DNA of 64,000 nucleotides from Thermodesulfobacteriota bacterium (lineage in GTDB: Bacteria > Desulfobacterota > BSN033 > UBA1163): contig JAOAHX010000014.1 of the NCBI GenBank assembly GCA_026415035.1, positions 11 through 64,010 of the forward strand, in the 5' to 3' direction. This document shows positions 3,528 to 35,470 of this stretch, piece after piece. The notes below the pieces were generated by a model. That model was not told the DNA's origin. It did not search any database and saw only the letters and a list, made by a program, of their open reading frames with translations. The translations under genes were made by a program, and so were the position numbers. Positions within the stretch are counted from its first letter, which is position 1, and every line of letters begins with the position of its first letter.

Positions 3528-4295
3528 GTGCATCCGATCCTGCTTCGCCTCGACGGCCTCACCCTCTATACATACGGCTTCTTTGTCGGCCTCGGATTTC
3601 TTCTTGGTTTGGCCCTCCTCCTCTGGAGGGGCCGAAAGGAAGGGATTCCGGAGGCCAGGCTCGTCGACCTATTCTTCCTCGTCTTCTTCTCCTCGATCGC
3701 GGGCGCAAGGGCCCTTTTCGTCCTTATCCACCCGGAGATCTTTCGGGAGGACCCCCTCGGCGTCTTCAAAGTCTGGGAGGGCGGGTTGGTCTTTTACGGA
3801 GGGCTCCTCCTCGCCAGCCTCCTCTCCTTGGCCTATTTAAAATGGGCCCGGCTGCCGGTATGGAAGGTCGCGGATCTCTTTTCCCCTGCCATCGCCATGG
3901 GGTTGGTCTTCGGCCGGATCGGTTGTCTGATGGCAGGGTGTTGCTACGGAAAGGAGACGTCTTTGGGTTGGGCGATCGTCTTCACGGACCCCCAGGCCTT
4001 GGCCCCCCTTCACCTGCCCCTTCACCCCACCCAGCTGTACGAAGCCCTCGGGGGAATCCTTCTCTTCTTCCTCTTGCACTGGAGAGAAGAGCGGAAGGGT
4101 TACGACGGCCAGATCTTCTTTCTCTTCCTCCTCTCCTATTCGATTCTCCGTTTCTTCCTCGAATTCCTGCGAGGGGATCCGAGGGGGTCTCTTTTGGGAG
4201 GCCTTCTCAGCACCTCGCAGGGGATAGGAATCTTCTTGGCCTCGACCTCCCTCTTTATGTTATTCTATTTGGGGAGAAGGAAGCGGAGGGAATGA
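3528..4295 (+). CDS. lgt: Prolipoprotein diacylglyceryl transferase
   Basis: N-terminus HPILLRLDGLTLYTYGFFVGLGF matches Lgt start; GRIGC motif; multi-TM; GTG start chosen after RBS AAAAAGG, upstream in-frame extension unlikely. Confidence 0.88.
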   Translation: MHPILLRLDGLTLYTYGFFVGLGFLLGLALLLWRGRKEGIPEARLVDLFFLVFFSSIAGARALFVLIHPEIFREDPLGVFKVWEGGLVFYGGLLLASLLSLAYLKWARLPVWKVADLFSPAIAMGLVFGRIGCLMAGCCYGKETSLGWAIVFTDPQALAPLHLPLHPTQLYEALGGILLFFLLHWREERKGYDGQIFFLFLLSYSILRFFLEFLRGDPRGSLLGGLLSTSQGIGIFLASTSLFMLFYLGRRKRRE

Positions 4296-4298
4296 GCC

Positions 4299-4814
4299 TT
4301 GGCTTGTTTGGAAATCTTGAGATACCCCCACCCCCTTTTGAAAAAACCCTGCGAGAAGGTGGTGCGGATCGATGAGGGGGTCAGACGCCTGATTCGGGAT
4401 ATGACCGAGACGATGTACAAGGCCAACGGGATCGGCCTTGCGGCCTGCCAGGTGGGCGATCACCGTAGAGTGATCGTCGTGGACGTGAGCCCCATCGATC
4501 CCGACAAGGAGTGTTTTGCGTTGATCAACCCGGAGATCGTCTCCGAGGAGGGCGAGGTGGAACACGAGGAGGGTTGCCTGAGCGTTCCCGATTGTGTGGA
4601 GAAGGTGAGGAGAAGGGAGAGGATCGTGGTTCGAGGGCTCACTCCCTCAGGGGAGGAGATCGAGATTTCCGCCGACGGGATCCAGGCCATCGCCCTCCAG
4701 CACGAGATCGATCACCTCAACGGCATCCTCATCCTTGACCGGATCAGCCGTCTCAAAAGGGAACTCTATCGAAACCGATTGAAGAAGTCGTTGAAAAAGG
4801 GGGAAGGGGATTGA
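4299..4814 (+). CDS. def: Peptide deformylase
   Basis: GIGLAACQVG, EGCLSVP, QHEIDHLNG motifs; TTG start right after lgt stop. Confidence 0.93.
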   Translation: MACLEILRYPHPLLKKPCEKVVRIDEGVRRLIRDMTETMYKANGIGLAACQVGDHRRVIVVDVSPIDPDKECFALINPEIVSEEGEVEHEEGCLSVPDCVEKVRRRERIVVRGLTPSGEEIEISADGIQAIALQHEIDHLNGILILDRISRLKRELYRNRLKKSLKKGEGD

Positions 4815-5755
4815 GCGCTGCTCGCTGGCGGATCGTCTTTTTCGGAACCCCTGAGTTCGCCCTTCCCTCCCTGGAGAGGCTTACCCAGGGACCGGAGGAG
4901 GTGGTGGCGGTCGTCACCCAGCCGGACCGGGAGAAGGGGAGGGGTAAAAAAAGGACCCCCCCTCCGGTCAAAACTTACGCCCTCCAACACGGGCTTTCCC
5001 TATACCAACCCGAGAAGGTAAAGGAAGCCTCCTTTCTTAACGAGATGAAGGCCCTCGGACCCGATCTCATGGTCGTCGTGGCCTTCGGTCAGATTCTGCC
5101 CAAAGGCCTCCTCGAGATTCCGAGATTCGGGGCGATCAACGTTCATGGGTCTTTGTTGCCCGCCTATAGGGGAGCGGCACCGGTCGCTTGGGCCCTCCTC
5201 AGAGGGGAGGAGAAGACCGGTGTCACCACGATGCTGATGGACGAGGGGATGGATACAGGAGATATCCTCCTTCAGGCAGAGGTGGCGATCGAGCCAGACG
5301 ATACGCGGGAGACCCTCGAAAAGAGACTCGCCTTGAGGGGAAGCGAACTCTTGACGGAAACGATCGAAAAGATGAAAAAGGGCGAGCTGACCCCCGTCCC
5401 CCAGGACCATTCGAAAGCCACCTACGCCCCGCCCCTTAAGAAAGAGGATGGCCGGATCGACTGGAGGAGGTCAGCCAGGGAGATCGAAAACCTGATCCGG
5501 GCGATGCACCCATGGCCCGGGGCCTTCACCCGCTGGGAGAGGGGATTGCTGAAGATCTTGCGGGGGGAGGCCCGCCAAGGGGCCATCTCATCGAACCCGG
5601 GGACGGTCCTGTGGGTGGGTGCTGATTTCATCGAGGTCGGCACAGGGGAAGGCTCTCTCCTGATCAAAGAGGTCCAGCCGGAGGGCGGCAGAAGGATGAG
5701 CGTGAGAGACTTCCTTGCCGGCCACCGCCTCCCCTCGGGGCTGGTCTTTCTCTGA
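4811..5755 (+). CDS. fmt: Methionyl-tRNA formyltransferase
   Basis: RIVFFGTPEFALPSL N-terminus, formyltransferase core and C-terminal domain; start overlaps def stop. Confidence 0.93.
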   Translation: MSAARWRIVFFGTPEFALPSLERLTQGPEEVVAVVTQPDREKGRGKKRTPPPVKTYALQHGLSLYQPEKVKEASFLNEMKALGPDLMVVVAFGQILPKGLLEIPRFGAINVHGSLLPAYRGAAPVAWALLRGEEKTGVTTMLMDEGMDTGDILLQAEVAIEPDDTRETLEKRLALRGSELLTETIEKMKKGELTPVPQDHSKATYAPPLKKEDGRIDWRRSAREIENLIRAMHPWPGAFTRWERGLLKILRGEARQGAISSNPGTVLWVGADFIEVGTGEGSLLIKEVQPEGGRRMSVRDFLAGHRLPSGLVFL

Positions 5756-9605: not shown

Positions 9606-10652
9606 TCAAAGTTTCTTCTTTTGGTACCTCCAGACCGCTCGCTGGTGATCCTCATAGTGTTCGGAGAAATGGTGGGAGCCGTCGTTTCTCGAGACGAAGT
9701 AGAGATAGGGAGAGGAGGCCGGATGGAGGGCGGCCCAGAGGGAATCCCTCCCAGGATTGCAGATCGGGGTAGGCGGCAGGCCCGGGTTCAGATAGGTGTT
9801 GTAGGGGGAAGGCCTTTTGAGATGTTCTTTGGTGAGGTCTCCGTCGAAGTCCTCAAGGCCGTAGATCACCGTCGGGTCGCTCTGAAGCGGGATCTTCCTC
9901 CTCAGGCGGTTGTGGAAGACGGCCGAGATGAGCGGCTTCTCTTCGGAAAGGGGGCTTTCCTTTTCGATGATGGAGGCCAGGATCACGACCTCCCTTGGCG
10001 AGAGGCCCAACTGGCGGGCCTTTTCGAGCCACTCCCTGAGAAAGTACCTCCGGAATTGCTGGGTCATCATCCGGATGACCTCCTCCGGATCCATCTCGCG
10101 GTAAAGGTGATAGGTTTCAGGGAAGAGGAAGCCTTCGAGGGTCCACCCGATCCCTTTCGTTTCTTTGGTGGGTTCAGGGAAGTATTCGGCGAGGCCCATC
10201 GAGGCGATGAAGGCCGGTGAGGTGGCCTTCTCGAGAAAGGCCTTCTGTTCCACGATCCCCAAGGCTCCGAGGAGTTGAGCTATTTGCCGAAGCGTGTATC
10301 CCTCGGGGATGGTGACGAGGTGACGCCTCACCTGGCCCTGGACGAGGGTGTTGAGAACCTCCAGAGGGAGCATGCGGGTGTGGAGCTCATACTCTCCCGC
10401 CTTGATCTCGGCCTTCTTCCCGAGCAGGGTGGCCAGCCCGATGAACATCTCCTTGCTCCGGATGATCCCCTCCTGCTCGAGGACCGAGGCCGTCGCCCTG
10501 AGCGAAGTGCCCCGTTTGATGAGGATGACCTTGTTCTGGGAGCTCTTGGAAGGAGGGATCAGGAGGAGATAGAAGAGCCCGAAGAGGAAGCTCGACACCA
10601 GGCAAAAGAGGCTAACGAGGAGGAATTTACGAGGAAAGAGGCGTCTCATCAC
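9606..10652 (-). CDS. mltG: Endolytic murein transglycosylase MltG/YceG-like
   Basis: N-terminal TM anchor, YceG-like domain (EGYTLRQIA, EGFLFPETY, IIEKE, TYxNPGLPPTPI). Confidence 0.88.
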   Translation of the reverse strand: MMRRLFPRKFLLVSLFCLVSSFLFGLFYLLLIPPSKSSQNKVILIKRGTSLRATASVLEQEGIIRSKEMFIGLATLLGKKAEIKAGEYELHTRMLPLEVLNTLVQGQVRRHLVTIPEGYTLRQIAQLLGALGIVEQKAFLEKATSPAFIASMGLAEYFPEPTKETKGIGWTLEGFLFPETYHLYREMDPEEVIRMMTQQFRRYFLREWLEKARQLGLSPREVVILASIIEKESPLSEEKPLISAVFHNRLRRKIPLQSDPTVIYGLEDFDGDLTKEHLKRPSPYNTYLNPGLPPTPICNPGRDSLWAALHPASSPYLYFVSRNDGSHHFSEHYEDHQRAVWRYQKKKL

Positions 10653-11067
10653 CTCTGCCCCTGAGCTGCTGGAGATATCCCTGGAGGATGAGGACCGCGG
10701 CCAGTTTGTCCACGACCGCTCTCCTCTTACTTCTTGAGAGGTCGGCCTCCAAGAGCGTTCGGTCCGCCTCGAGGGTCGAAAGCCTCTCGTCCCAGGTGAT
10801 TACGGGAAGACCGACCCGCCTTTTGAGCTCCTCGATCCAGCTCAAGACGAATTCGGCCTGTTTGCCCAAGGAACCATCCATCCTTACCGGAAGACCGACG
10901 ACGATCTCCTTCACCCCATATTGAGAGATGAGGGCGAGGAGCTGATCAAATTCATCCTCCTTCGAATCCCGTCGAATGGTTTTCACGCCCTGTGCCGTGA
11001 TTCGAAGCTCGTCGCTGATGGCCACGCCGATCCTCTTCTGTCCGATATCAAGGGCCATGATCCTCAT
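10627..11067 (-). CDS. ruvX: Putative pre-16S rRNA nuclease / Holliday-junction resolvase-like YqgF
   Basis: MALDIGQKRIGVAISD RNase H-like fold start, VVGLP motif; 146 aa. Confidence 0.9.
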   Translation of the reverse strand: MRIMALDIGQKRIGVAISDELRITAQGVKTIRRDSKEDEFDQLLALISQYGVKEIVVGLPVRMDGSLGKQAEFVLSWIEELKRRVGLPVITWDERLSTLEADRTLLEADLSRSKRRAVVDKLAAVLILQGYLQQLRGRGDETPLSS

Positions 11068-11187
11068 CGATCCTCTTGTCGTTCAACGCCGCTGGACTTG
11101 TCCACCGGATGGACCACGACGGCCCGTCCCAACGGTTAAACTAAAAATAGTCTAACATACAGGGATCAAAAGGGAAAGAAAAATTTC

Positions 11188-11216
11188 TTGACATTGGTGG
11201 GCGTGTTTGTTATAAA
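11188..11216 (+). promoter_or_regulatory. Sigma70-like promoter TTGACA-17-TATAAA upstream of acyl-CoA dehydrogenase
   Basis: TTGACA 11188-11193, 17-nt spacer, TATAAA 11211-11216; true start codon ATG 11250 with RBS AGAGGGAGG. Confidence 0.6.
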
Positions 11217-11249
11217 ATGCACAATCTTAAAAAAGAGGGAGGTCTTTTT

Positions 11250-12395
11250 ATGGATTTTTCATTCACGGAAGAGCAGATCGCGATGAGGGATATGGCCAAG
11301 AATTTTGCAGAGAAGAAGATCGCTCCCACCATGGAAGAGGATGAGAAGGAGCATCGATTTCGAAGGGAGATCGTCAAAGAGATGGCCAGCCTCGGGTTCT
11401 TCGGCTGCATCGCGCCGGAGAAATATGGCGGAAACGAGACGGGGTATATCGCGGCCTCGATCATGGCCGAAGAGATCGCCAGGGTCTCACCCTCCTGGGG
11501 CCTTCCCTTCAATCTCCAGATGAATTCTATCCAGTCGGTCCTGCTCCAATTCGGGACCGAATCGCAGCGAGAACAGTACATCCCTAAATTGATCAATGCC
11601 GATCTGCTCGGCTGTTTCGCCATCACGGAGCCCAATTCCGGTTCGGATGTGGCCTCGATGAAAACGGCTGCTGAAGAGAAAGAGGATGGGTTCATCCTCA
11701 ACGGTAGCAAGATGTGGATCTCGGGTGTACCGGTGGCCGATCTCGGGATCGTCTATGCCTATACCGATCGATCCCTCAAACATCGGGGGATGTCCGCCTT
11801 TTTGGTCGATATGCACCTGCCTGGAGTGACCCAGAAGGCGATCGAGACGAAATTGGGGCTTCACTGCGCCCCCACCGGCGAGATCTATTTCGACAACGTC
11901 AAGCTCCCGAAGGAGAGCCTGGTGGGTCAAAAAGGGGATGGGTTCAAGATCTGCATGTACATGCTCGACAATACGAGGCTCTCCTGCGCTTCCAGGGCCG
12001 TCGGCGTGGCCAGGGCCTGTAAGGAACATGCGATCCGTTACGCCAACGAGAGGGAGCAGTTCGGCCAGCCCATCGCCAATTTCCAGATGATTCAAGAGCA
12101 GATCGCAGAGATGGTGGTCGAGGAGGAGGCGGCGAGGCTGCTGGTCTACCGGGCGGCCTGGAACCGTGATCGGGGGCAGCGCAATACGGTGGAGATCTCC
12201 TGCGCCAAACTCTTTGCATCCGAGGTGGCGGTCCGAGCGGCCAACACCGCCGTCAAAATCTTCGGTTCCTACGGTTTTTCGAGCGAATATCCGGTGGAAC
12301 GTTTTTATAGGGATGCGAAATCCTTCCAGATCGTCGAGGGAACCTCGAACATCCACAAGATGATCATCGCAAGAAATGCCCTGGGCCTGAAGTAG
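11250..12395 (+). CDS. Acyl-CoA dehydrogenase (short-chain/glutaryl-/alicyclic-CoA type)
   Basis: MDFSFTEEQ start typical of ACADs, FAD/substrate motifs (GSKMWISG, catalytic-base region FQIVEGTSNI); the ORF-track start at 11217 lies inside the promoter, so I reject it. Confidence 0.9.
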   Translation: MDFSFTEEQIAMRDMAKNFAEKKIAPTMEEDEKEHRFRREIVKEMASLGFFGCIAPEKYGGNETGYIAASIMAEEIARVSPSWGLPFNLQMNSIQSVLLQFGTESQREQYIPKLINADLLGCFAITEPNSGSDVASMKTAAEEKEDGFILNGSKMWISGVPVADLGIVYAYTDRSLKHRGMSAFLVDMHLPGVTQKAIETKLGLHCAPTGEIYFDNVKLPKESLVGQKGDGFKICMYMLDNTRLSCASRAVGVARACKEHAIRYANEREQFGQPIANFQMIQEQIAEMVVEEEAARLLVYRAAWNRDRGQRNTVEISCAKLFASEVAVRAANTAVKIFGSYGFSSEYPVERFYRDAKSFQIVEGTSNIHKMIIARNALGLK

Positions 12396-12520
12396 GGACG
12401 AAACGGCCCACCCTTCGGGATGTCCATGCTTTCCCGGCCAGAGCTTTGAAGGGCTGGAGAGGGCCGCGTCACGAATGCTCGGGCAAGCATCCAAAATCCA
12501 ACTGTTTCGAAGAGGAGGTT

Positions 12521-12742
12521 ATGCCTATGGGAACACCTGTGACGGTACCAATGGTAGGGAAGATCGTCTCCATCTCCGTGAAGGTCGGGGATCAGGTGAA
12601 AGAGGACGACCAGGTGGCGGTCCTTGAAGCGATGAAGATGGAGATGCCCATCGTGGCCCCGGTGAGTGGGACGATCCAGGAGATCAAGGTCGCACCGGGC
12701 CAGGAGGTCGAAGCTGAAGCGGTCATCGCCATCATCGGATGA
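12521..12742 (+). CDS. Small biotin carboxyl carrier protein (biotinyl domain only)
   Basis: 73 aa; EAMKM biotin-attachment motif; RBS AGGAGG 6 nt upstream of ATG 12521. Confidence 0.75.
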   Translation: MPMGTPVTVPMVGKIVSISVKVGDQVKEDDQVAVLEAMKMEMPIVAPVSGTIQEIKVAPGQEVEAEAVIAIIG

Positions 12743-12767
12743 CCCGGAGGGGGCGGGAGTCGGAGCG

Positions 12768-13223
12768 GTGGAGATCGATTTTTTATCGAAGGTCACCATA
12801 CGGCCCATGAACCCGGGAGACATCGGGGCGATTGTGGCGATCGACGAGAAGGTCATCGGAAAGTCGAGGCCGGATTACTGGAAGAAGATGGTCCCCGAAA
12901 ATCCACCGCATCCCATGCTCTCTCTGGTGGCGGAATTTGAAGGAAAGGTCATCGGGTTCGTTCTCGGAGAGGTGAGCGGGTGGGAATTCGGGGTTCCCGA
13001 TACGGTGGGATGGCTCACTATCATCGGCGTCGATCCCGACTTCCAACACAGGGGGGTGGCGAGAAAGTTGAGCCAGGAGTTCATCAAGAATTTGAAGGCG
13101 ATGAATGTCCGGGTCGTCTATACCTTGGTCAATTGGAATGATTGGGACCTCCTCAAATTCTACAAGGAGATGGGGTTCACCCGTGGGGGGGATATGATCA
13201 ACTTAGAATTGAGGCTCGATTAG
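12768..13223 (+). CDS. GNAT-family N-acetyltransferase
   Basis: GNAT core (VIGFVLGEV...HQHRGVARKL...KEMGF); start uncertain (GTG 12768 after GGAGGGGGCGGGAG, or ATG 12807). Confidence 0.6.
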   Translation: MEIDFLSKVTIRPMNPGDIGAIVAIDEKVIGKSRPDYWKKMVPENPPHPMLSLVAEFEGKVIGFVLGEVSGWEFGVPDTVGWLTIIGVDPDFQHRGVARKLSQEFIKNLKAMNVRVVYTLVNWNDWDLLKFYKEMGFTRGGDMINLELRLD

Positions 13224-13247
13224 AGCCCGGTCGAAGGAGAACGGGAG

Positions 13248-14003
13248 ATGGGAAGACTTGAAGGGAAAGCGGCGGTGGTGACGGGCGGAGGGAGGGGGAT
13301 CGGCAGGGCCGTCTGCCTCGCCTTCGCCAAAGAAGGGGCGGACGTGGTCGTCAACTATGCCTCGCAGGAGAAACCGGCCCAGGAGGTCGTCGCGCTGATC
13401 GAGCAGATGGGGCGGAAAGGGGTTGCGGTGAAAGGAAATGTGGCCGTCAAGGCCGATGTGGAGAAGATCATCCATACCTGCATCGATCACTTCGGGAAGA
13501 TCGATATCCTGGTGAACAATGCGGGGGTGTCCAGGCCCGGCATGCTCCACAAGATGACCGAGGAACAGTGGGACGAGGTGATCGACATCCAGCTCAAAGG
13601 CCCCTTCCTCTGTACTCAGGTGGCGGCCAAATTCATGATGGAGAGGAAGTACGGAAGGATCATCAACGTCACCTCCTCGGCTGGGCTCTGGGGGACCAAA
13701 GGCCAGATCAACTACAGCGCCGCCAAAGGAGGGGTTGTGGCCCTGACCAAATCGGCGGCCAGGGAGCTGGCGGGTTATGGGATCACTGTCAATGTGATCC
13801 AGCCCGGTTACGTCAATACGGAGATGTTCGAACGGGTGAAGTCGGATCCCAAGCTTTTGGAGATCTATACCGGCCGGATCCTGCTCGGTCGTTTTGCAGA
13901 TCCGGAGGAGGTGGCCCCGGCCTTCGTCTTTCTGGCCTCAGACGAGGCCAGTTATGTGACGGGTCAGCTCTTCTGCATCGACGGCGGCCTGGGGATGACC
14001 TGA
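13248..14003 (+). CDS. Short-chain dehydrogenase/reductase (FabG/BadH-like 3-hydroxyacyl-CoA dehydrogenase)
   Basis: TGGGRGIGRA Rossmann motif, NNAG, YSAAK catalytic tetrad, 251 aa. Confidence 0.85.
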   Translation: MGRLEGKAAVVTGGGRGIGRAVCLAFAKEGADVVVNYASQEKPAQEVVALIEQMGRKGVAVKGNVAVKADVEKIIHTCIDHFGKIDILVNNAGVSRPGMLHKMTEEQWDEVIDIQLKGPFLCTQVAAKFMMERKYGRIINVTSSAGLWGTKGQINYSAAKGGVVALTKSAARELAGYGITVNVIQPGYVNTEMFERVKSDPKLLEIYTGRILLGRFADPEEVAPAFVFLASDEASYVTGQLFCIDGGLGMT

Positions 14004-26894: not shown

Positions 26895-27125
26895 CGACGT
26901 TCACCTCCCGAGACATAAAGGGTGAACTAAACCTTATTATATTTTGGACTCAAAGGCAAGATTTCCCCTTCCCTTTACGGAGGCTTGAGGGAGGCAGGCC
27001 CGTAATTTCAATTTGGCAGGGAGGGCTCCCATTTAAGGGGGCTGCCTGGACTTGACAAAATGGGGGGGAGTGACTAATTTTTGGCCAGAAAAAAGGTTAT
27101 CCCTCGAGTTCTTAGAATGGTTGGT

Positions 27126-27147
27126 TTGCATGGGTTTTTAAATGCAA
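27126..27147 (+). promoter_or_regulatory. Inverted repeat TTGCAT-N10-ATGCAA in hsp20 leader (candidate operator)
   Basis: Perfect 6-bp inverted repeat 30-50 nt upstream of hsp20 ATG; weak TTGACA-17-TAATTT at 27052-27080 further upstream. Confidence 0.35.
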
Positions 27148-27176
27148 AACATCCTTTAAGAAAGGGGGAATGAACG

Positions 27177-27644
27177 ATGGCACGGGAACTGACGATTTGG
27201 AGACCTTTGCGAAACTGGGTTCCATTCGATTTCGATCAAATGAGGAGGGAAATGGACCGTCTCTGGGATTCCTTCTTCGAAAGGGGGGTGAGGAGGAAAA
27301 CCGATGAGGCGGGCGATTGGTTCCCGACCCTCGATGTCTCCGAGACCAAGGACGATCTGGTGATCAAGGCCGAGGTCCCGGGGTTGGAACCCAAGGACAT
27401 TGATATCTCCCTTTCCGACGGGGTCCTCACCATCAAGGGTGAGAAGAAGGAGGAAAGGGAGGAGAAGGAAGAAGATTATTACCTGATGGAGAGGTGCTAT
27501 GGGTCTTTTGCTCGGTCGATCCAACTTCCCAAAAGGGTCCAGAGCGATAAGATCCAGGCGACCTACAAAAATGGGTTGTTGAAAATCGTCCTTCCCAAAT
27601 CGGAAGAGGCGAAGAAGAAAGAGATCAAGATCCAAGTGCAATAA
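27177..27644 (+). CDS. Small heat-shock protein, Hsp20/alpha-crystallin family
   Basis: Alpha-crystallin domain (DVSETKDDLVIKAEVPGL...GVLTIKGEK...YKNGLLKIVLPK). Confidence 0.93.
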   Translation: MARELTIWRPLRNWVPFDFDQMRREMDRLWDSFFERGVRRKTDEAGDWFPTLDVSETKDDLVIKAEVPGLEPKDIDISLSDGVLTIKGEKKEEREEKEEDYYLMERCYGSFARSIQLPKRVQSDKIQATYKNGLLKIVLPKSEEAKKKEIKIQVQ

Positions 27645-27651
27645 CCCCTCC

Positions 27652-27689
27652 TGCCTACCGGTTCTCCGGTAGGCACTTTTATTTTCTTT
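27652..27689 (+). terminator. Rho-independent terminator after hsp20
   Basis: TGCCTACCGG-ttct-CCGGTAGGCA perfect 10-bp stem followed by CTTTTATTTTCTTT. Confidence 0.8.
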
Positions 27690-27830
27690 GATCCCCGTTC
27701 GTTTCTGGATTTCTTGAAAGGAACCCCTCAGGGTGGGAGGGGTGTCGTTCATATCCCTCGGCATCTCAAGGCCTTTTGAGACCGGCCCAAAAGAAATCCT
27801 AACTCATGAGGAGGTTTGAAGAAGAGAGCG

Positions 27831-27989
27831 ATGCGATGTGAAAGGTGTCAGGGTCTCATGAATTATGAAACCTTCTACAGCCATGAGGGGGTCTATTCGG
27901 GATGGAGATGTTTTCTCTGCGGAGAGGTGATCGACGAGCTGGTGTTGGAGAACCGAAGGCGATCCAAGGCTCATAGGGACAGATCATGA
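27831..27989 (+). CDS. Mini zinc-ribbon ORF (52 aa), not in the supplied ORF track
   Basis: ATG 27831..TGA 27989; MRCERCQGLMNYETFYSHEGVYSGWRCFLCGEVIDELV: CxxC-x16-CxxC; ends 14 nt before GT4 gene start. Confidence 0.4.
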   Translation: MRCERCQGLMNYETFYSHEGVYSGWRCFLCGEVIDELVLENRRRSKAHRDRS

Positions 27990-28002
27990 TGGAGGAGGGA
28001 GA

Positions 28003-30342
28003 GTGGTGGAGGGGATCGGCCATGGCCAAAACGGGGGGAGAAAGGTCTTTTTCGTGGGGACTTACCCTCCACGGAATTGCGGCATTGCCACCTTCACCCA
28101 TGATCTCTCCCATGCCTTGAGCGGGGTCAACGGAAAGGTTTCCTACCGGGTCGCCGCCATCACCAACATTCCCGAGGGGTATGATTATCCCGAGGAAGTC
28201 TCCTTCGAGATCCACCAGAACCAGATTCACGACTACCGGCTGGCCGCGGACTACGTGAACTTCTCCGGGGCCGATATCGTCTGTCTCCAGCATGAATTCG
28301 GAATTTTTGGCGGGGCCGCGGGGACCTATATCAACCACTTCCTCTCCAATCTGAAGAAGCCCGTGGTCACCACCCTCCACACCGTCCTCAAGGAGCCAAA
28401 CGAGACCTTTCGACAGGCCCTTCTTTCGATCGCCGAGCTTTCTCTCGGGCTGGTGGTGATGAGCCGACAGGCCATCCAGCTCCTCACGGAGGTCTACGGA
28501 ATCGAACGGGACAAGATCTTTTTTATCCATCACGGGATTCCGGATACTCCCTTCGTGGATCCTAATTTTTATAAAGATCGGTTTCAGGTCGAAGGCCGGT
28601 TCGTCCTGCTGACCTTCGGTCTCCTCAACCCGAACAAAGGGATCGAGTTGGTCCTGGAGGCCCTTCCCCTGGTCGCGGAAAAGTATCCGAAGGTGGCCTA
28701 TATCATCCTCGGAGCGACCCATCCCGAAGTGAAACGCCTCCGGGGAGAGGAGTACCGGCTTTCGCTTCAGCGGAAGGTGACCAAATTGGGGCTCGAATCC
28801 CATGTCTTCTTCTACAACCGGTTCGTTGACCTTCAGGAACTTTGCGAGTTCATCGGGGCTTGTGATCTCTACATCACCCCCTATCGCTCCAGAGAGCAGA
28901 TCACGAGCGGGACCCTCGCCTATGCCCTGGGGATGGGCAAACCCGTCATCTCCACCCCCTACTGGTATGCGCAGGAGATGCTGGCCGAGGAGCGGGGGAT
29001 CTTGGTCGATTTCGGGGATGTGGAGGGAATGGCCAATGCGATCCTCGAGATGATCGAGAACGAACCGAAGCGCCACCAGATGCGGAAGCGGGCTTATGAA
29101 TTCGGGAGGACCATGGTCTGGAGGGAAGTGGGAAAGGAGTACCTGAGGGTCTTCGAGACGGTCCTCAGCCGGGTCCATAAGATTCCGACGAGGAGGGCCT
29201 TCGAGCAGACCTTCACGCAGCAGGACGCCCTTCCGGAGGTGACCCTCGACCACCTCTGCCGTCTAACGGACGATACTGGCCTGATTCAACATGCCACCTA
29301 TGGCATTCCTGACCGTCGCCACGGCTATTCGACCGACGATGCGGGGAGGGCCCTGGTCGTGGTCCTCCAGTTTTATGACCAGTACAGGGAGCAACGGGCT
29401 CTCGAGTTGGCCGAGCGCTATCTCTCGTTCCTCGCCTATGCCCAGCGGGAGGACGGAAGGTTCCATGGGTTCATGGACTATCAGCGGAAATTTATAGACG
29501 AGGTCGGCAGCGAGGACACCCAGGGAAGGGCCCTTTGGGGATTGGGGTGTGCCGTGAGCCTTGGGCCCCATGATCCTTTTCGAGCCCTTGCCAAAGAGCT
29601 CTTCGAGAGGGCGATTCAGAACCTCCATCTGAACCATCCCCGATCCCTGGCCTATGCCATCTTTGGGTTCTGGTATTTTCTCCAGAGGTACGAGGGAGCG
29701 ACCGCCATCCGACGAGGGTTGATCGCCTTTTCCGACCGACTCGTCGAGGCCTACGAGGCGAACCGTGAGAAGGATTGGCGATGGTTTCATGGCGCTCTCA
29801 CCTATGGGAATGCGAAGATCCCCCAGGCGCTGCTTCTGGCCTATCATCTGACAGGCACGGCCCGATACCGGGAGGTGGGGCTCGAAAGCCTCGATTTTCT
29901 GACCCAGGAGCTCTTCAACGGAGATTATTTCGACCTTGTGGGCAACTCAAGGTGGTACGAACGGGGACACCCGAAGGCGACCTTCAGCCAACAGCCGATC
30001 GATGCCGGTTACCTGACCGAGGCCTATGCGACCGCCTACCGGCTGACCCAGAAAGAAGAGTACCTGAGACTGGCTCAGGCGGCCTTCGAGTGGTTTCTCG
30101 GAAGAAACCGGCTTGGCCTCTCCCTTTACGATTTTTCGAGGGGGGCCTGTTTCGATGGGATCGATCCCCATGGCATCAATCAAAACCAGGGTGCGGAGTC
30201 GATCATCTGCTTCCTCCTCGCCAATCTGGCCCTTTCTCAGAAAGGGATGCTTCGAACCTTGATCAAACGCCCCTTTGGTCTCGATTCCGGTTTAAGTCTC
30301 CACCTTCCCTCCTCCGAACAGGCCGGTGAGAGGGGAGGATGA
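28003..30342 (+). CDS. Fusion protein: N-terminal GT4 glycosyltransferase + C-terminal alpha-helical six-hairpin-glycosidase-like domain
   Basis: GTG start after GGAGGAGGGAGAG; N-half has GT4/GT-B features (GTYPPRNCGIATFT, EGFGL-like GLLNPNKGIE, YITPYRSREQITSGTLAYALGMGKPVISTP); C-half ~370 aa helical, Trp/Tyr-rich (WGLGCA, FGFWYF, YGNAKIPQALL). Confidence 0.75.
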   Translation: MVEGIGHGQNGGRKVFFVGTYPPRNCGIATFTHDLSHALSGVNGKVSYRVAAITNIPEGYDYPEEVSFEIHQNQIHDYRLAADYVNFSGADIVCLQHEFGIFGGAAGTYINHFLSNLKKPVVTTLHTVLKEPNETFRQALLSIAELSLGLVVMSRQAIQLLTEVYGIERDKIFFIHHGIPDTPFVDPNFYKDRFQVEGRFVLLTFGLLNPNKGIELVLEALPLVAEKYPKVAYIILGATHPEVKRLRGEEYRLSLQRKVTKLGLESHVFFYNRFVDLQELCEFIGACDLYITPYRSREQITSGTLAYALGMGKPVISTPYWYAQEMLAEERGILVDFGDVEGMANAILEMIENEPKRHQMRKRAYEFGRTMVWREVGKEYLRVFETVLSRVHKIPTRRAFEQTFTQQDALPEVTLDHLCRLTDDTGLIQHATYGIPDRRHGYSTDDAGRALVVVLQFYDQYREQRALELAERYLSFLAYAQREDGRFHGFMDYQRKFIDEVGSEDTQGRALWGLGCAVSLGPHDPFRALAKELFERAIQNLHLNHPRSLAYAIFGFWYFLQRYEGATAIRRGLIAFSDRLVEAYEANREKDWRWFHGALTYGNAKIPQALLLAYHLTGTARYREVGLESLDFLTQELFNGDYFDLVGNSRWYERGHPKATFSQQPIDAGYLTEAYATAYRLTQKEEYLRLAQAAFEWFLGRNRLGLSLYDFSRGACFDGIDPHGINQNQGAESIICFLLANLALSQKGMLRTLIKRPFGLDSGLSLHLPSSEQAGERGG

Positions 30343-30397
30343 GGGGTCTTGTGGGGGGAATCCGTGGGATTCGACGGCTCGTCAGAGGTGAGAAGGC

Positions 30398-31384
30398 ATG
30401 TCCCGAACGGATCGAAACCGATATCCAAGTCTCTTTAAACGCCATCCAGGCAATCCCATTCTCGAAGCCTCCATGTGGCCCTACCCGACGAACTCCGTCT
30501 TCAACGCAGGGGTGGCCGACCTCGGAGACGAGACCCTGTTGCTCGTGAGGGTAGAGGACCGTCGCGGTTTTTCCCATCTGACCGTGGCGAGGAGCCGAAA
30601 CGGGGTGGATGGTTGGGTGATCGATCCCAAACCGACGCTCGAGCCGGACCCGGAGGGCCACCCGGAGGAGGTCTGGGGGATCGAAGATCCCCGAATCGTC
30701 TACCTTGTAGAACGAGGGGAGTGGGCGATAACCTACACGGCCTATTCGATCGGGGGACCGCTGGTCTCCCTGGCGACCACAAAAGATTTTAGGAGCTTCC
30801 AACGATGGGGACCGGTCATGCCCCCCGAGGACAAGGACGCGGCTCTCTTTCCGAGGCGGTTCGGAGAGCGCTGGGTTATGCTTCATCGCCCCGTGCCCGT
30901 CTCCCAGCTCGGCGCCCATATCTGGATCTCTTATTCCCCCGACCTGAAGCACTGGGGAGACCATCGGATCCTCATCGAATCGAGAAGGGGGGGCTGGTGG
31001 GATTCCTTCAAGATCGGTTTAGGACCGCCGCCCCTTGAGACCCCGGAGGGATGGCTCGTCCTCTACCACGGGGTGAGGCAGACGGCTGCAGGCTGTATTT
31101 ATCGTCTGGGCCTGGCCCTCCTGGACCTCCAAGACCCCTCACGGGTGTTGAGAAGGAGCGACGAGTGGGTCTTCGGTCCAGAGGAATCCTACGAACGGTC
31201 TGGCGATGTAGCGGATGTGGTCTTTCCCTGTGGTTGGGTCTTGGACAAAGACGGAAAGATTCGGCTCTACTATGGAGCGGCCGACACCTGCATGGCCCTG
31301 GCCATCGGAGAGCTCGACCCGATTCTCAATTATCTCCTGAGCTGTCCGGTTCCCGGCCCCCAACCCCTTCAGTGTTTCCGTTGA
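30398..31384 (+). CDS. GH130-family glycoside phosphorylase/hydrolase (beta-mannoside phosphorylase-like)
   Basis: NPIL start region, NAGVADLGDETLLLVRVED, WGIEDPRIV, beta-propeller repeat pattern typical of GH130/DUF377. Confidence 0.85.
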   Translation: MSRTDRNRYPSLFKRHPGNPILEASMWPYPTNSVFNAGVADLGDETLLLVRVEDRRGFSHLTVARSRNGVDGWVIDPKPTLEPDPEGHPEEVWGIEDPRIVYLVERGEWAITYTAYSIGGPLVSLATTKDFRSFQRWGPVMPPEDKDAALFPRRFGERWVMLHRPVPVSQLGAHIWISYSPDLKHWGDHRILIESRRGGWWDSFKIGLGPPPLETPEGWLVLYHGVRQTAAGCIYRLGLALLDLQDPSRVLRRSDEWVFGPEESYERSGDVADVVFPCGWVLDKDGKIRLYYGAADTCMALAIGELDPILNYLLSCPVPGPQPLQCFR

Positions 31385-31400
31385 TGGAGGGGGGCAGAAG

Positions 31401-32825
31401 ATGAAGGTCGCCATGCTCAGCCCGATCGCATGGAGAACCCCTCCCAGGCATTACGGGCCGTGGGAGTGGGTGGTCTTTCTGCTCACCGAGGGGTTGGTGA
31501 GGCGAGGTGTCGATGTGACCCTTTTCGCCACGAAGGATTCGATCACCTCGGCCAAATTGGAAGCCCTCTGTCCGAGGCCCTACGAGGAGGATCCGAACCT
31601 CGATCCGAAGGTATGGGAGGGTCTCCATATCGCCCACCTTTTCGAGAAGGCCGAGCAGTTCGATTTGATCCATAACCATGACGACTTCCTCCCCCTCAAC
31701 TGGAGCGGTCTGGTGGGCACGCCCGTTCTCACGACGATCCACGGGTTTTCGAGTCCGAAGATCCTTCCGGCCTACCGTCGGTACAACGGAAAGGTCTATT
31801 ACGTCTCGATCAGCGAGGCCGATCGAGAGGAGGGGCTCGAATACCTGGCCACGATCCACCACGGGATCCCTGTGGAGCAGTACCGGTTTAATCCCGAGCC
31901 AGGTGGCTACCTCCTTTTCTTTGGACGGATTCACCCGGAGAAGGGAACCCACGAGGCCATCGAGCTGGCGAGAAGGGCAGGGATGAGGCTGATCATCGCC
32001 GGCATTATTCAAGACCGAAGCTACTTCGAAAGGGAGGTTCGACCCCATCTCGATTCGATGATCCAGTACATCGGCCCGGTCGGGGGGGAAAGGAAGAGCG
32101 AGATCCTGGGCGGGGCCTATGCATTGCTCCACCTGATTCGTTTTAGAGAACCTTTCGGCCTCAGCCTCATCGAGGCGATGGCCTGCGGAACGCCCGTGAT
32201 CGCCAGGGGCCTTGGAGCGATTCCTGAAATCGTCCAGCCAGGCCGAAACGGGTGGATCGTGGATGGTCCGGAGGAGGCCGTTGAAGCGCTGGAGAAGGTG
32301 AGGAAGATCGACCGTTCCGAATGCAGAAGGAGCGTGGAGGAGCGATTCACCCAGGATCGGATGGTCGAGGACTACCTTCGGGTCTACCGTCAGATCCTCG
32401 ATCGGCATAAAAGGGAGGAGAAGAGGCCCTGGGGAGGCTATCAGGTCCTTCGATCGGAGGCCTCCTTCAAGGTGAAGAAGATCTGGGTCGATCCCCATCA
32501 GCGGCTCAGTTATCAGAGGCATCTCCATCGGAAGGAACACTGGGTCGTGATCGAAGGAAAGGCCCTGGTCCTCCTGGAGGGGAAGGAGATCTCCCTTGGC
32601 CCGGGAGATTCGATCGATATCCCTCAGGGGGCGGCCCATCGGATCGGCAATATCGGCGAGGGACCTCTGGTCTTCATCGAGATCCAGAGAGGAGATCTGC
32701 TGGCAGAGGAGGACGTCATCCGCCTTGAGGACGATTATGGGAGAAGCGATTCGAAAGGAGGCGGGGAACCATGGAGGATGGCTTCACCCTCGGAGTCAAT
32801 TACTGGCCGATCGAGTCGGCCATGA
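31401..32825 (+). CDS. Fusion protein: GT4 glycosyltransferase + C-terminal mannose-6-phosphate-isomerase-type (ManC/XanB C-terminal) cupin domain
   Basis: GT4 motifs (HNHDDFLP, EPFGLSLIEAMACGTPVIA); C-terminal KEHWVVIEGKALV...IPQGAAHRIGNIGEGPLVFIEIQRGDLLAEEDVIRLEDDYGR matches the PMI type II cupin signature. Confidence 0.8.
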   Translation: MKVAMLSPIAWRTPPRHYGPWEWVVFLLTEGLVRRGVDVTLFATKDSITSAKLEALCPRPYEEDPNLDPKVWEGLHIAHLFEKAEQFDLIHNHDDFLPLNWSGLVGTPVLTTIHGFSSPKILPAYRRYNGKVYYVSISEADREEGLEYLATIHHGIPVEQYRFNPEPGGYLLFFGRIHPEKGTHEAIELARRAGMRLIIAGIIQDRSYFEREVRPHLDSMIQYIGPVGGERKSEILGGAYALLHLIRFREPFGLSLIEAMACGTPVIARGLGAIPEIVQPGRNGWIVDGPEEAVEALEKVRKIDRSECRRSVEERFTQDRMVEDYLRVYRQILDRHKREEKRPWGGYQVLRSEASFKVKKIWVDPHQRLSYQRHLHRKEHWVVIEGKALVLLEGKEISLGPGDSIDIPQGAAHRIGNIGEGPLVFIEIQRGDLLAEEDVIRLEDDYGRSDSKGGGEPWRMASPSESITGRSSRP

Positions 32826-33973
32826 GCTGGTGGCATCGCTTCGATCCCGGAGTGGTGGGAGAGGACTTCTCCCGGATAGGAGAGGTCGGCCTGAAGGCCG
32901 TGAGGATATTCCTCCTGTGGGAGGATTTCCAACCCGATCCGAAGAAGGTTCGGTCGGATCGTTTGAAAGAGCTGATCAGGGTGATGGACCTGGCTCACGA
33001 GCGAGGGCTGCGGGTCCTTCTTACCCTTTTTACCGGCCATATGAGCGGGATGAACTACCTACCTCCCTGGATGGTGGAGGTGAAGGAGGAACCGGAGAGC
33101 CGTTTCTATGTTTATTCGGGCGGAAGGAGGAGGAAGAACAAGATCCGGAATTTCTATGCAGATCGGGAGGCGAGGGAGGCCCAAAAATTTCTTCTCCGGG
33201 AGGTGGCGGGAGCCCTTCAGGGCCATCCGGGGATCTGGGCCTGGGACCTCGGAAACGAACCGTCCAACGTGACCCAACCCCCAACCAGGTCTGACGCCTT
33301 GGTCTGGCTCGAAGAGATGGTCTCGGAGCTGAAGAAAAGGGACGAATCGATTCCGGTGACCCTGGGTCTCCATCAGGAGGATTTGGAGGAGGACCGAAGG
33401 ATGGGGCCAGCCGAGGTGGCCCGGTTTTGCGACTTTCTCTCCATCCATGCCTATTCGATCTATGCCCGTTGGGCGGAGGGGAGGCTGGACGAAGCCGTGG
33501 TCCCCTTTCTCGGCCTCCTCACCCGATGGCTCGGGGGAAAAGAGGTGCTGATCGAAGAGGTGGGGCTTGCGACCTCGAATGCGGTCCGCGGGGAATGGAT
33601 CGTCACGGAGGACGATGGCTTCGATTATTATAAACGCCTTCTGGAGAACGTCGGGACCTCTGGATTTCTCGGCATCCTCTTCTGGTGTTACGGGGATTAT
33701 GGTGAGGCGTTATGGAACATCCCTCCCTTCGACGAAAAGATACACGAGCGGTATTTCGGGCTCTTCCGGAAAGACCGATCTCCCAAGGCCTACGTCAAGC
33801 TCTTGAAGGAGTTTCAGGTGGAACCGGATCGAAGAAGACCGGTTTTGTCCAGCTGGATCGATATCGAACCGCAAGAGTATTATCGAAATCCGATGGCCCA
33901 CCTCGAGCGGCTCTTTGGGAGATTTAAAGGGCAGGGCCGCTCCCATGAACCTGTGGTTCCAAATGGGCGATGA
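32771..33973 (+). CDS. GH-A clan (GH5/GH113-like) glycoside hydrolase, mannanase-like
   Basis: TIM-barrel pattern with GVNYWP strand 1, LGNEPSN acid/base motif and EVLIEEVG nucleophile motif; 55-nt overlap with upstream gene (alternative ATG 32822 gives ATGA overlap but removes strand 1). Confidence 0.7.
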   Translation: MEDGFTLGVNYWPIESAMSWWHRFDPGVVGEDFSRIGEVGLKAVRIFLLWEDFQPDPKKVRSDRLKELIRVMDLAHERGLRVLLTLFTGHMSGMNYLPPWMVEVKEEPESRFYVYSGGRRRKNKIRNFYADREAREAQKFLLREVAGALQGHPGIWAWDLGNEPSNVTQPPTRSDALVWLEEMVSELKKRDESIPVTLGLHQEDLEEDRRMGPAEVARFCDFLSIHAYSIYARWAEGRLDEAVVPFLGLLTRWLGGKEVLIEEVGLATSNAVRGEWIVTEDDGFDYYKRLLENVGTSGFLGILFWCYGDYGEALWNIPPFDEKIHERYFGLFRKDRSPKAYVKLLKEFQVEPDRRRPVLSSWIDIEPQEYYRNPMAHLERLFGRFKGQGRSHEPVVPNGR

Positions 33974-34021
33974 CCCCTTCCATCCGAAGGGAGAAAAAAA
34001 CTCAAGGGAGGTGGAGAAAGG

Positions 34022-34306
34022 ATGAACGAGAGCCGAACGAACCCTTCCCCGGCAAAATGGCAGACCTGTGTTCGGACCATCAAATGCGATTTCATCGACG
34101 ACTATGTCTCCCTGATGGTGAAGAACGATTGGACCTCGCTCTGCACTTGGTATAGGCAATGGAAGGATCCGGAATCGAAAGGGGCCAAGGGATTAAAACC
34201 CAACAAAGAGACCCGCAAAAAGATCACCCTCTGCCAAGGGCCTGACTGTTCTTATGTCACGGGCTACCGGGACGAGTTGATGAAAGAGGAACGGAAGGCG
34301 GCTTAA
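34022..34306 (+). CDS. Small Cys-rich hypothetical protein (94 aa)
   Basis: 6 Cys (CVRTIKCD...C...CQGPDC); no family recognised. Confidence 0.35.
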   Translation: MNESRTNPSPAKWQTCVRTIKCDFIDDYVSLMVKNDWTSLCTWYRQWKDPESKGAKGLKPNKETRKKITLCQGPDCSYVTGYRDELMKEERKAA

Positions 34307-34318
34307 GGGAGAGGGCCT

Positions 34319-34762
34319 TCAGCCCTTTCGGTCGCAGCCGAGATATTTAAAGAGGCCGGTGACGAAATTTCCCCAGGTGGGGAGGAGACGGTCGATCTCA
34401 TAGGGGATCAGTTTGACCTTTCCCTCGTGGAGGAGGCTGTGGATCTCCTCTAACTTCGTGAAGCTCAAGGGCCAGGTCTTCTTCCCGAGCTCACAGATCA
34501 TGTGGATGTTCTTGGTCTTCTCATCGAGGTCGAGGATCCGGAGTCTCTTAAACCCATCCCCGGCGAAGAACTGTATCTTCTGATCCTTCATCTCCACCAG
34601 CTTCTCCCAACCGAAGACGCATCCCTCGGAGGAGGGTGCCCCTCTGGAGGGAGCAGCCGCCTCTCGTTTGGCCGTCTTTTTTGCCGCCCCTTGCCTGGCC
34701 CTATCCCTGGGGAAAGGGTTCTTTTTAGAAAGAGACTCCTTTTCGACCTTCTCCGAGCCCAT
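34319..34762 (-). CDS. Hypothetical protein with basic disordered N-terminus and ~100-aa C-terminal domain
   Basis: 147 aa; N-terminal K/R/A-rich tract, then globular-looking domain; no family recognised. Confidence 0.4.
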   Translation of the reverse strand: MGSEKVEKESLSKKNPFPRDRARQGAAKKTAKREAAAPSRGAPSSEGCVFGWEKLVEMKDQKIQFFAGDGFKRLRILDLDEKTKNIHMICELGKKTWPLSFTKLEEIHSLLHEGKVKLIPYEIDRLLPTWGNFVTGLFKYLGCDRKG

Positions 34763-34897
34763 GTCGTTTTCCCCTTTAAAAAGGTACTAAAAATGTGGGG
34801 CAGTGTCAAGGTGAGGAGGCCACTGAGCGGGTTCCGATTGACTTTGGTCAAGGGATTCATTATAAGCTTAGACCAAGAAGGAGGGAGGTGACAGGCG

Positions 34898-35470
34898 ATG
34901 AAGATCTTGGGGATTCTCGGAAGTCCAAGGCGGAAAGGGAACAGCGACCTCCTGCTCGATCAGGCCCTCGCCGGGGCGAAAGAGATGGGAGCCAAGGTGG
35001 AGAAGATCGCCCTAAGCCGCAAAAAGATTGCAGGATGTTTGGACTGCACGAAATGCAACAAGACGGGCCTCTGCGTGATCCAGGACGACATGCTCGAGAT
35101 CCATCAAAAGATCCTCAAGGCGGACGGCCTCATCCACAGCGTCCCGCTCTATTTCTGGGCCATGACCTCGCAGATGAAGGCCTATTTGGACCGGTGGTGC
35201 GCCTTCTTCGATGAAAACTGGAACTGGCACAAGGCGTATGAACCGAAGATGAAGGGGAAACGGATCGGCCTGATCACCGTCTGCGGCGACCCCGATCCCC
35301 ATACGGCCGACCCAATCGTCCACAGCTTCAGGGAGACCTGTAAATTCTCCGGCCTTCATCTCTTTCCCGTGGTCCAGGTCTCGGCCGCGGTCAAGGGAGA
35401 GGTGGCGAAGAACGAGAAGGCGAAGAGAGAGGCCTTTCTCTTGGGGCAGAAGATCGCCACCCCTTCATGA
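34898..35470 (+). CDS. Iron-sulfur flavoprotein (Isf-like, NADPH-dependent FMN reductase fold)
   Basis: Flavodoxin-like start MKILGILGSPRRKGNS and compact CxxCxxCx5C motif (CLDCTKCNKTGLC) diagnostic of the Isf family. Confidence 0.75.
   Translation: MKILGILGSPRRKGNSDLLLDQALAGAKEMGAKVEKIALSRKKIAGCLDCTKCNKTGLCVIQDDMLEIHQKILKADGLIHSVPLYFWAMTSQMKAYLDRWCAFFDENWNWHKAYEPKMKGKRIGLITVCGDPDPHTADPIVHSFRETCKFSGLHLFPVVQVSAAVKGEVAKNEKAKREAFLLGQKIATPS

Follow-up and report, generated by a model that had tools for sequence, protein, structure and literature searches.

The window analyzed here is a stretch of 64,000 nucleotides from contig JAOAHX010000014.1 of a Thermodesulfobacteriota bacterium. On its forward strand it contains a complete open reading frame (ORF) of 474 amino acids (31401..32825, from an ATG start to a TGA stop, as given by the ORF list and the sequence), in which a glycosyltransferase of family GT4 is joined in frame to a ManC-type cupin, that is, a phosphomannose isomerase (PMI) domain of type II. 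The gene is the third of a four-gene operon with the order long GT4, GH130, GT4-cupin and GH5 (GH, glycoside hydrolase family). The explanation that we favor, with a probability of about 0.6, is that it encodes a two-domain cytoplasmic enzyme of this mannoside operon and that the cupin would be the PMI of the pathway, relocated from ManC. The protein is an ordinary member of a database-known, functionally uncharacterised family, and each of its two domains belongs to a textbook family.

Domain composition of the fusion protein

The combination of a GT4 with a ManC-type cupin in a single frame had been proposed in a first-pass annotation of the sequence, and Pfam confirms it. Glyco_transf_4 (PF13439) matches residues 22-137 with 37.6 bits (cutoff 28.5), Glycos_transf_1 (PF00534) matches residues 166-304 with 79.4 bits (cutoff 26.4, E 3e-22), and MannoseP_isomer (PF01050) matches residues 337-444 with 114.6 bits (gathering score 23.6, E 3.8e-33), the last match being full-length (model positions 9-116 of 116). 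The NCBIfam model TIGR01479 (GMP_PMI) is matched over the same cupin stretch only, at positions 350-467 of 467. The whole-protein score for this model, 114.9, is far under the equivalog cutoff of 372.95, because the N-terminus of the fusion is a GT4 and not a nucleotidyltransferase, and the protein is not a member of that family.

Pfam, NCBIfam, the sequence search of the Protein Data Bank (PDB) and the fold search agree on the domain identities. The GT4 domain, which has the GT-B fold and resembles the enzyme TeGSS/tll1591, occupies residues 1-333 (31401..32399, by phmmer and Foldseek), and the PMI cupin occupies residues 336-450 (32406..32750, by Pfam, TIGR01479 and identity to CpsB). They are followed by a C-terminal tail of residues 451-474 (32751..32825, delimited by the ends of homologues and by model confidence), which is non-conserved, predicted to be disordered and the source of the long overlap with the next gene. 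The AlphaFold2 model of the fusion, built from 82 homologues, has a mean predicted local distance difference test (pLDDT) of 90.8 and a predicted template modelling (TM) score of 0.77. In this model the junction between GT4 and cupin is a helical linker of high confidence, and the pLDDT falls below 50 over residues 449-474. No single PDB chain found by Foldseek covers both domains. The last 24-26 residues, past the DDYGR motif, show no conservation among the homologues, most of which end 0-14 residues beyond DDYGR; a few have tails approximately as long as that of the window protein.

The fused architecture is common in public databases

A search for further GT4-cupin fusions, as had been suggested along with the first description of the gene, found many of them. 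In a clustered database of 5.8 billion proteins there were at least 8000 matches, the best 120 clusters of which were examined. All 120 have the Pfam set of the fusion (GT4 domains, PF01050 and Cupin_2), lengths of 445-492 amino acids and 59-80% identity over approximately 95% of the query. They are drawn from NCBI, JGI, ENA, MGnify and Logan assemblies, and their attributions include Desulfobacterota, Syntrophales, Nitrospirota, Scalindua and Syntrophaceticus. A second search covered 1.84 billion representatives of clusters formed at 50% identity and yielded 2098 matches with E <= 1e-30. The best 150 of these include about 14 full-length fusions, the most distant at 36% identity, along with about five fragments spanning the junction. 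The majority of relatives at this level of clustering are GT4-only proteins of 340-370 amino acids. Among species-representative genomes, full-length fusions are encoded in Syntrophaceae, the complete Thermodesulfobacteriota genome CP113000.1, Pelotomaculum, Nitrospirota, Gammaproteobacteria, Desulfotignum and one Methanosarcinales archaeon.

The fused architecture is thus abundant, and public databases already contain it and in part name it: an NCBI nr protein (P0001), 100% identical to the window protein, is named "glycosyltransferase [Desulfobacterota bacterium]", and both domains of the fusion are named in the IMG annotation of several members. The rarity implied by the first-pass annotation does not hold, as the family is populous in Desulfobacterota, Bacillota, Nitrospirota, Gammaproteobacteria, Planctomycetota and Methanosarcinales. 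Our literature search found no paper describing the GT4-PMI fusion or the GT4/GH130 cassette in which it lies, and the papers on GH130 are silent on the cassette.

These counts also bear on an assembly or sequencing artefact, in which a GT4 gene and a small cupin gene, separate in the organism, would have been run together by a frameshift or a lost stop codon. Such an origin could be imagined since the window derives from a metagenome-assembled genome (MAG), since naturally split versions exist (locus L053, see below) and since the unusually long C-terminal tail could stem from an indel. We nevertheless consider it extremely improbable and reject it for the fusion itself: the architecture is continuous in 120 of the 120 best independent clusters from five assembly sources and in the more distant full-length clusters reaching 36% identity, the junction is a linker modelled at high confidence, and the unusual part comprises only the last 24 residues, past the conserved DDYGR end. 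The length of the tail alone could be an assembly indel.

The cupin domain retains the type II PMI signature

The cupin and the C-terminal domain of Escherichia coli CpsB/ManC share 46% identity. In bifunctional type II PMI/GDP-mannose pyrophosphorylases (ManC/CpsB, AlgA, WbpW, BceA, CBU0671; TIGR01479) the same PF01050 cupin forms the C-terminal 115 residues, and their motifs RPWG, QxHxxRxEHW, HRxxN and EDDxxRxxDxYGR are all retained in the fusion; the N-terminal partner is a nucleotidyltransferase in these enzymes and a GT4 in the window protein. The signature quoted in the first-pass annotation was largely correct, as its strings are found in the translation; in one detail the protein reads EEDVIRLEDDYGR and not EDDIVRLEDDYGR.

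Two motifs hold the predicted metal ligands, as judged from the codons and from a profile alignment to quercetinase YxaG. Motif 1, Q372-x-H374-x4-E379 (CAG..CAT..GAA, 32514..32537, forward strand), provides three of them, and motif 2 (CAT CGG, 32637..32642, forward strand) provides the fourth, H413, followed by R414. In the alignment, Q372/H374/E379/H413 fall on H62/H64/E69/H103 and on H234/H236/E241/H275 of YxaG, which we take to be the metal ligands of that enzyme.

Conservation was determined in 82 homologues at 59-79% identity. All four predicted ligands are invariant, as are W344, G345, K359, S370, R377, W381, G386, R414, N417, E427, Q429, G431, E436, D438, R441, D444 and G447; R342, P343, D445 and R448 are conserved in at least 90% of the sequences. 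In all, thirty-odd cupin positions are invariant or conserved at this level. H376, which may have been taken for a ligand in the first-pass annotation, is variable. A decayed domain with lost metal-binding residues, which the first-pass annotation had considered, is therefore not what the alignment shows; the cupin is under constraint.

A sequence-profile search of the PDB with the cupin returned only generic cupins, with a best E of approximately 1e-9, and no solved type II PMI domain, and a single-sequence AlphaFold2 model of the cupin alone reached a pLDDT of 58.8. The fused protein would be a soluble, well-predicted construct for a first structure of this domain.

The cupin changes position within a widespread cassette

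The genomic context was compared across 84 loci, scanned by tblastn with the cassette proteins. The short GT4 stands beside GH130 nearly always and near a long GT4 usually. This arrangement spans Desulfobacterota, Bacillota, Chloroflexota, Calditrichota, Ignavibacteriales and Gammaproteobacteria, and occurs also in Leptospira, on a Deinococcus plasmid, in Promethearchaeota and in Methanosarcinales; GH130 adjoins the fusion in 14 of the 16 distinct fusion-bearing loci. The cassette as a whole (long GT4, short GT4 and GH130, with ManC, phosphomannomutase (PMM), PMI cupin and GH5 variably) recurs in many bacterial phyla, in Methanosarcinales and in Asgard MAGs. We found no description of its product or physiological role, and we regard it as a more interesting lead than the fusion or the gene overlap.

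The orthologous operon of locus L002, the fusion of which is 76% identical to ours, has the order long GT4, PMM, GH130, GT4-cupin, GH5-like, ManC and DUF6178, and its proteins share 65-80% identity with the corresponding proteins of the window. Unlike the bifunctional ManC/CpsB, ManC of this operon is encoded by a separate gene; it has 358 residues with NTP_transferase and beta-helix domains and lacks PF01050, and no PMI module besides the fused cupin is encoded in the operon.

Across the cassettes the position of the cupin varies, with at most one cupin per cassette. It is fused to the short GT4 in L001-L015, L047 and L050, it lies inside a fusion of approximately 1050 residues accompanied by a cupin-less short GT4 in L021, L026, L040 and L051, and it stands free directly upstream of ManC in L065 and L068. 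A GT4-cupin and a ManC-cupin were found together in none of the loci compared. The PF01050 domains fused to ManC-PMM or free beside ManC are 46-65% identical to the cupin of the fusion.

Several variants were noticed in these loci. The long fusion of L021 (ORF at approximately 10230-13390) consists by Pfam of NTP_transferase, beta-helix, PF01050 and PGM_PMM I-IV, that is, ManC-PMI-PMM, and all three steps of GDP-mannose synthesis are predicted on one polypeptide. Those of L026, L040 and L051 were matched to it by tblastn and ORF length only; the four ORFs (approximately 1040-1070 residues) come from Syntrophomonadaceae and Bacillota MAGs and lie in the GT4/GH130 cassette. In L053 (8810-10369) a divergent glycosyltransferase of 373 residues with a weak Glyco_transf_4 match is followed by a separate PF01050 cupin gene of 124 residues, a natural split form; the rest of this operon is orthologous to that of L002, with 60% (GH5), 72% (ManC) and 62% (DUF6178) identity. 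Two ORFs, in a Rickettsiales MAG (L058, approximately 9980-10850) and a Planctomycetota MAG (L055, approximately 4280-5550), have the cupin attached directly to the N-terminal Rossmann half of a short GT4 from which the nucleotide-binding C-terminal half is missing; these could be degenerate or repurposed forms. A DUF6178 protein at the operon's 3' end, approximately 540 residues long, overlaps the end of the cupin-less ManC in L002 (11616-13238) and L053 (12614-13912); DUF6178 is absent from the whole 64-kb window.

A cupin that has kept the PMI motifs need not be an enzyme. It could instead be a sensor of sugar phosphates or nucleotide sugars, or a dimerisation module which regulates or oligomerises the GT4, in the manner of ManC proteins whose PF01050-type C-terminus reportedly has no PMI activity. 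Cupins commonly dimerise, the PMI reaction is two steps away from the donor of the transferase so that a gain from channelling is not obvious, and truncated forms exist in which the cupin is joined to half a GT4 (L055, L058). A passage in PMC3204966, citing Jensen & Reeves 1998, states that some proteins retain the shared PMI motif and have lost the function. The invariance of the four predicted ligands and of the wider PMI signature in 82 diverse sequences argues against this role. The occurrence of a single cupin per cassette, be it on GT4, on ManC-PMM or free by ManC, fits a pathway enzyme better, and L002 has the whole GDP-mannose route with no other PMI. We judge a non-catalytic cupin to be rather unlikely.

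The GT4 domain and its putative donor

The closest solved relative of the GT4 domain is TeGSS/tll1591 (7FG9, 7FGA, 8X3Q), the glucosylsucrose synthase of Thermosynechococcus elongatus, with a phmmer E of 4e-81 over residues 1-333. By AlphaFold2 and Foldseek the domain has the GT-B fold with two Rossmann-like domains, and on 8X3Q and 7FG9 the model gives a target-normalised TM score of 0.94-0.95, a root-mean-square deviation of 1.3 A and 42-43% identity. TeGSS, like alr1000, belongs to the same short GT4 subfamily as the GT4 of the fusion, and the fusion, like TeGSS, would be a soluble, cytoplasmic enzyme acting on soluble sugars. They differ in that TeGSS has 341-361 residues and no cupin, uses UDP-glucose and sucrose and is encoded beside a sucrose-phosphate synthase gene, whereas the fusion of 474 residues carries the cupin and is encoded in an operon with a mannose theme.

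As an alpha-1,2-glucosyltransferase, TeGSS elongates sucrose with UDP-glucose as the donor; mutations show Tyr18 and Arg179 to be important, and Lys184 binds the diphosphate (PMC9909042). In the phmmer alignment these three residues correspond to Y18, R176 and K181 of the fusion. R176 and K181 are invariant among the 82 homologues, Y18 is conserved in at least 90% of them, and the EX7E pair, E250-x7-E258, is invariant, while Trp10 of TeGSS is shifted by one position in the fusion (W11). The uridine-binding loops 3 and 4 differ between the two proteins (AGKV/IGEAD against AGII/IGPVG); reading a donor from them would take a structure with bound ligand. The operon context (ManC, PMM, GH130) and the PimA-like N-terminus of the long GT4 suggest that the donor is GDP-mannose. 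The fusion may be seen as a routine Rosetta-stone event that ties a TeGSS-like GT4 to GDP-mannose metabolism, and it gives a donor prediction, GDP-mannose, for a large family annotated merely as "glycosyltransferase".

The fructose-containing acceptor of TeGSS, sucrose, brings up a different chemistry for the cupin, which could act on the substrate or product of the transferase itself, for example by epimerising a hexose, free or glycosylated, or by interconverting its aldose and ketose forms, making the fusion a two-step bifunctional enzyme. Cupin-fold isomerases of non-phosphorylated sugars exist, and the generic cupins returned by the PDB profile search, with no type II PMI structure among them, do not constrain the substrate geometry. 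The full-length, high-scoring PF01050 match, with its identity to the ManC C-terminus, speaks against this, and the presence of nearly the same domain on ManC-PMM or free by ManC points to sugar-phosphate metabolism and not to a GT4 product. We consider this alternative improbable, more so than the loss of catalysis.

In the PMI reading of the cupin, the N-terminal domain, which is a retaining glycosyltransferase with the GT-B fold and belongs to the TeGSS/tll1591 subfamily, most likely forms an alpha-linkage between a hexose and a soluble sugar acceptor, and the cupin would be a type II PMI, predicted to be metal-dependent, interconverting fructose-6-phosphate and mannose-6-phosphate. In some lineages the PMI module would have been transferred from the C-terminus of ManC to that of a glycosyltransferase acting in the same pathway. 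Because PMM and ManC steps separate PMI from the donor of the transferase, direct substrate channelling is improbable, and the fusion would most likely serve co-expression or complex formation.

Several observations weigh against assigning the cupin to a mannoside pathway as its PMI. PMM and ManC were not found by tblastn anywhere in the 64-kb window. The cupin is absent from the cassettes of L018 and L046, which shows that a cassette can do without the fused PMI, and the complementary distribution of the cupin between GT4 and ManC covers only about 12 loci. The nearest characterised GT4, TeGSS (approximately 43-50% identity), takes UDP-glucose and sucrose and not GDP-mannose, and the PMI motif can outlive the activity, as mentioned above. 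Furthermore, retaining GT4s make alpha-linkages and GH130 and GH5 act on beta-mannosides, so that no common substrate of the cassette is evident.

Neighboring genes and a possible mannoside cycle

The gene 16 nt upstream of the fusion encodes a GH130 mannoside phosphorylase (by homology) of 328 amino acids (30398..31384, forward strand; PF04041, E 1e-56), the best PDB match of which is 1VKD/TM1225 (E 4e-64). Alignments to UhgbMP and TM1225 show that it has, by UhgbMP positions, R59, E103, D104, K150, R168, H231 and D304. This set is the signature of beta-1,2-mannoside phosphorylases (PMC7660257, Table 2), in which D104 is the proton donor, R168 and H231 bind phosphate and R59, E103, K150 and D304 form the +1 subsite (PMC7660257). 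By these residues the window GH130 would belong to the beta-1,2 group. Overall it is nearest to the beta-1,4-type TM1225 (1VKD), yet it carries the beta-1,2 +1-subsite signature E103/K150. The stretch around K150 reads EDKDAALFPRR (residues 144-154), and EDKDAA is conserved in GH130s of the window type; the cassettes hold up to three GH130 subtypes, with the motifs EDKDAA, ADxRNVV and QNKGMA at the K150 site.

The first gene of the cassette encodes the long GT4 of 779 amino acids (28003..30342, forward strand), in which Pfam recognizes an N-terminal GT4 that is followed by a C-terminal domain of approximately 380 residues. In the PDB, the N-terminus is matched best (E 1e-12) by PimA, a mannosyltransferase that depends on GDP-mannose. 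The C-terminal half (29203-30342) belongs to no Pfam family and shows weak matches to C5-epimerase-C and GH88 and one weak PDB match, 7TEM. Its fold could be an (alpha/alpha)6 barrel, and it is conserved along with the cassette, at 34-80% identity, in many phyla. Inspection revealed no obvious signal peptide on any protein of the operon, and the system appears to be cytoplasmic.

The scheme that we infer for the pathway, PMI activity, donor, acceptor and physiological product included, has two arms. Synthesis would proceed from fructose-6-phosphate to mannose-6-phosphate (cupin), mannose-1-phosphate (PMM) and GDP-mannose (ManC), which would then be used by the GT4s. In the breakdown arm, GH130 would convert a mannoside and phosphate to mannose-1-phosphate, from which fructose-6-phosphate would be regained. 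Because PMI is reversible and mannose-1-phosphate is both the product of GH130 and the substrate of ManC, the cupin would tie the mannoside pool to fructose-6-phosphate in both directions.

A published cluster of comparable content is Teth514_1785-1790 of Thermoanaerobacter sp. X-514, which comprises a GH5, two GH130 beta-1,2-mannoside phosphorylases, a mannose-1-phosphate guanylyltransferase and a GT4 along with an ABC transporter, and which was interpreted as serving to salvage beta-1,2-mannan after its import (PMC4264767). Compared by its published description, it shares GH5, GH130 and GT4 in one unidirectional cluster with the window, and a GDP-mannose enzyme with the relatives of the window; the beta-1,2 signature (E103/K150) of the window GH130 is what ties the two. 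No PMI cupin is reported on the GT4 of X-514, whereas the window GT4 has one.

In Leishmania, the mannogen cycle maintains a cytosolic pool of beta-1,2-mannosides, built from and recycled to mannose-1-phosphate and GDP-mannose by GT108 dual glycosyltransferase-phosphorylases. The parallel is conceptual only, since GT108 is a different enzyme family and the organism is a eukaryotic parasite. Tentatively, and with more doubt than belief, we propose that the fusion and the cassette could mark a widespread cytoplasmic mannoside cycle of anaerobic bacteria and some archaea. Its pool would be a beta-1,2-mannoside or mannogen-like compound (storage or compatible solute), built and recycled by two GT4s and one to three GH130s, with the GT4-attached PMI gating the flow of carbon between glycolysis and the pool. 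Such an intracellular reserve or osmolyte cycle would be a prokaryotic counterpart of the mannogen cycle and would account for many "orphan" cytoplasmic GH130 genes of non-gut organisms.

The overlapping GH5 gene

The stop codon of the fusion gene (TGA, 32823-32825) reaches 55 nt past ATG 32771 of the next ORF, which encodes a beta-mannosidase-type hydrolase of 400 amino acids (32771..33973, forward strand; identified by PDB matches and by its orthologue in L002). The PDB matches (E 1e-11 to 2e-17) are the GH5_18 beta-mannosidases 7LQX, 7LR1 and 6MOY, the exo-mannosidase 6GVB and the mannanase 7BOB, and the translation contains an NEP motif; judged from its sequence, the enzyme is GH5_18-like.

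Two starts of this gene had been left open in the first-pass annotation, ATG 32771 and the in-frame ATG 32822, which forms an ATGA overlap with the stop of the fusion (32822..32825, forward strand). The former is supported by three observations: the alignments to PDB structures open at residue 6-7 of the protein starting at 32771 and thus take in the GVNYW first strand, the L002 orthologue (65% identity) starts at the equivalent methionine (MKDEFVTGVNYWP) and is aligned from residue 1, and only ATG 32771 has a Shine-Dalgarno sequence, AAAGGAGG (32754..32761, forward strand), 9 nt upstream. Hence the gene starts at 32771 and, in the sequence as assembled, the 55-nt overlap is real. ATG 32822 was rejected as a start; no Shine-Dalgarno sequence precedes it, and its use would delete the conserved GVNYW strand aligned to solved GH5 structures. 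In L002 the overlap is 11 nt with another frame offset, and the long overlap is peculiar to the window genome.

The two genes had also been described as tightly translationally coupled whichever start is used. This claim is weakened by the GH5 start having a strong Shine-Dalgarno sequence of its own, predicted to be mostly unpaired in the minimum-free-energy fold. RNA folding revealed no significant structure at the start (z +0.63), and coupling mediated by structure is therefore unsupported. Translational coupling of the fusion and GH5 as adjacent genes of an operon is plausible, while classical termination-reinitiation across a backward distance of 55 nt seems unlikely.

Operon boundaries

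A scan of positions 27000-35000 detected no sigma-70-like promoter, and the terminator-like matches in this region were at chance level, with one exception. This is a strong hairpin at 27652-27675 with a 10-bp stem including seven G-C pairs and a following T-run, located approximately 330 nt upstream of the start of the long GT4 gene; on its upstream side the operon is probably delimited by this hairpin.

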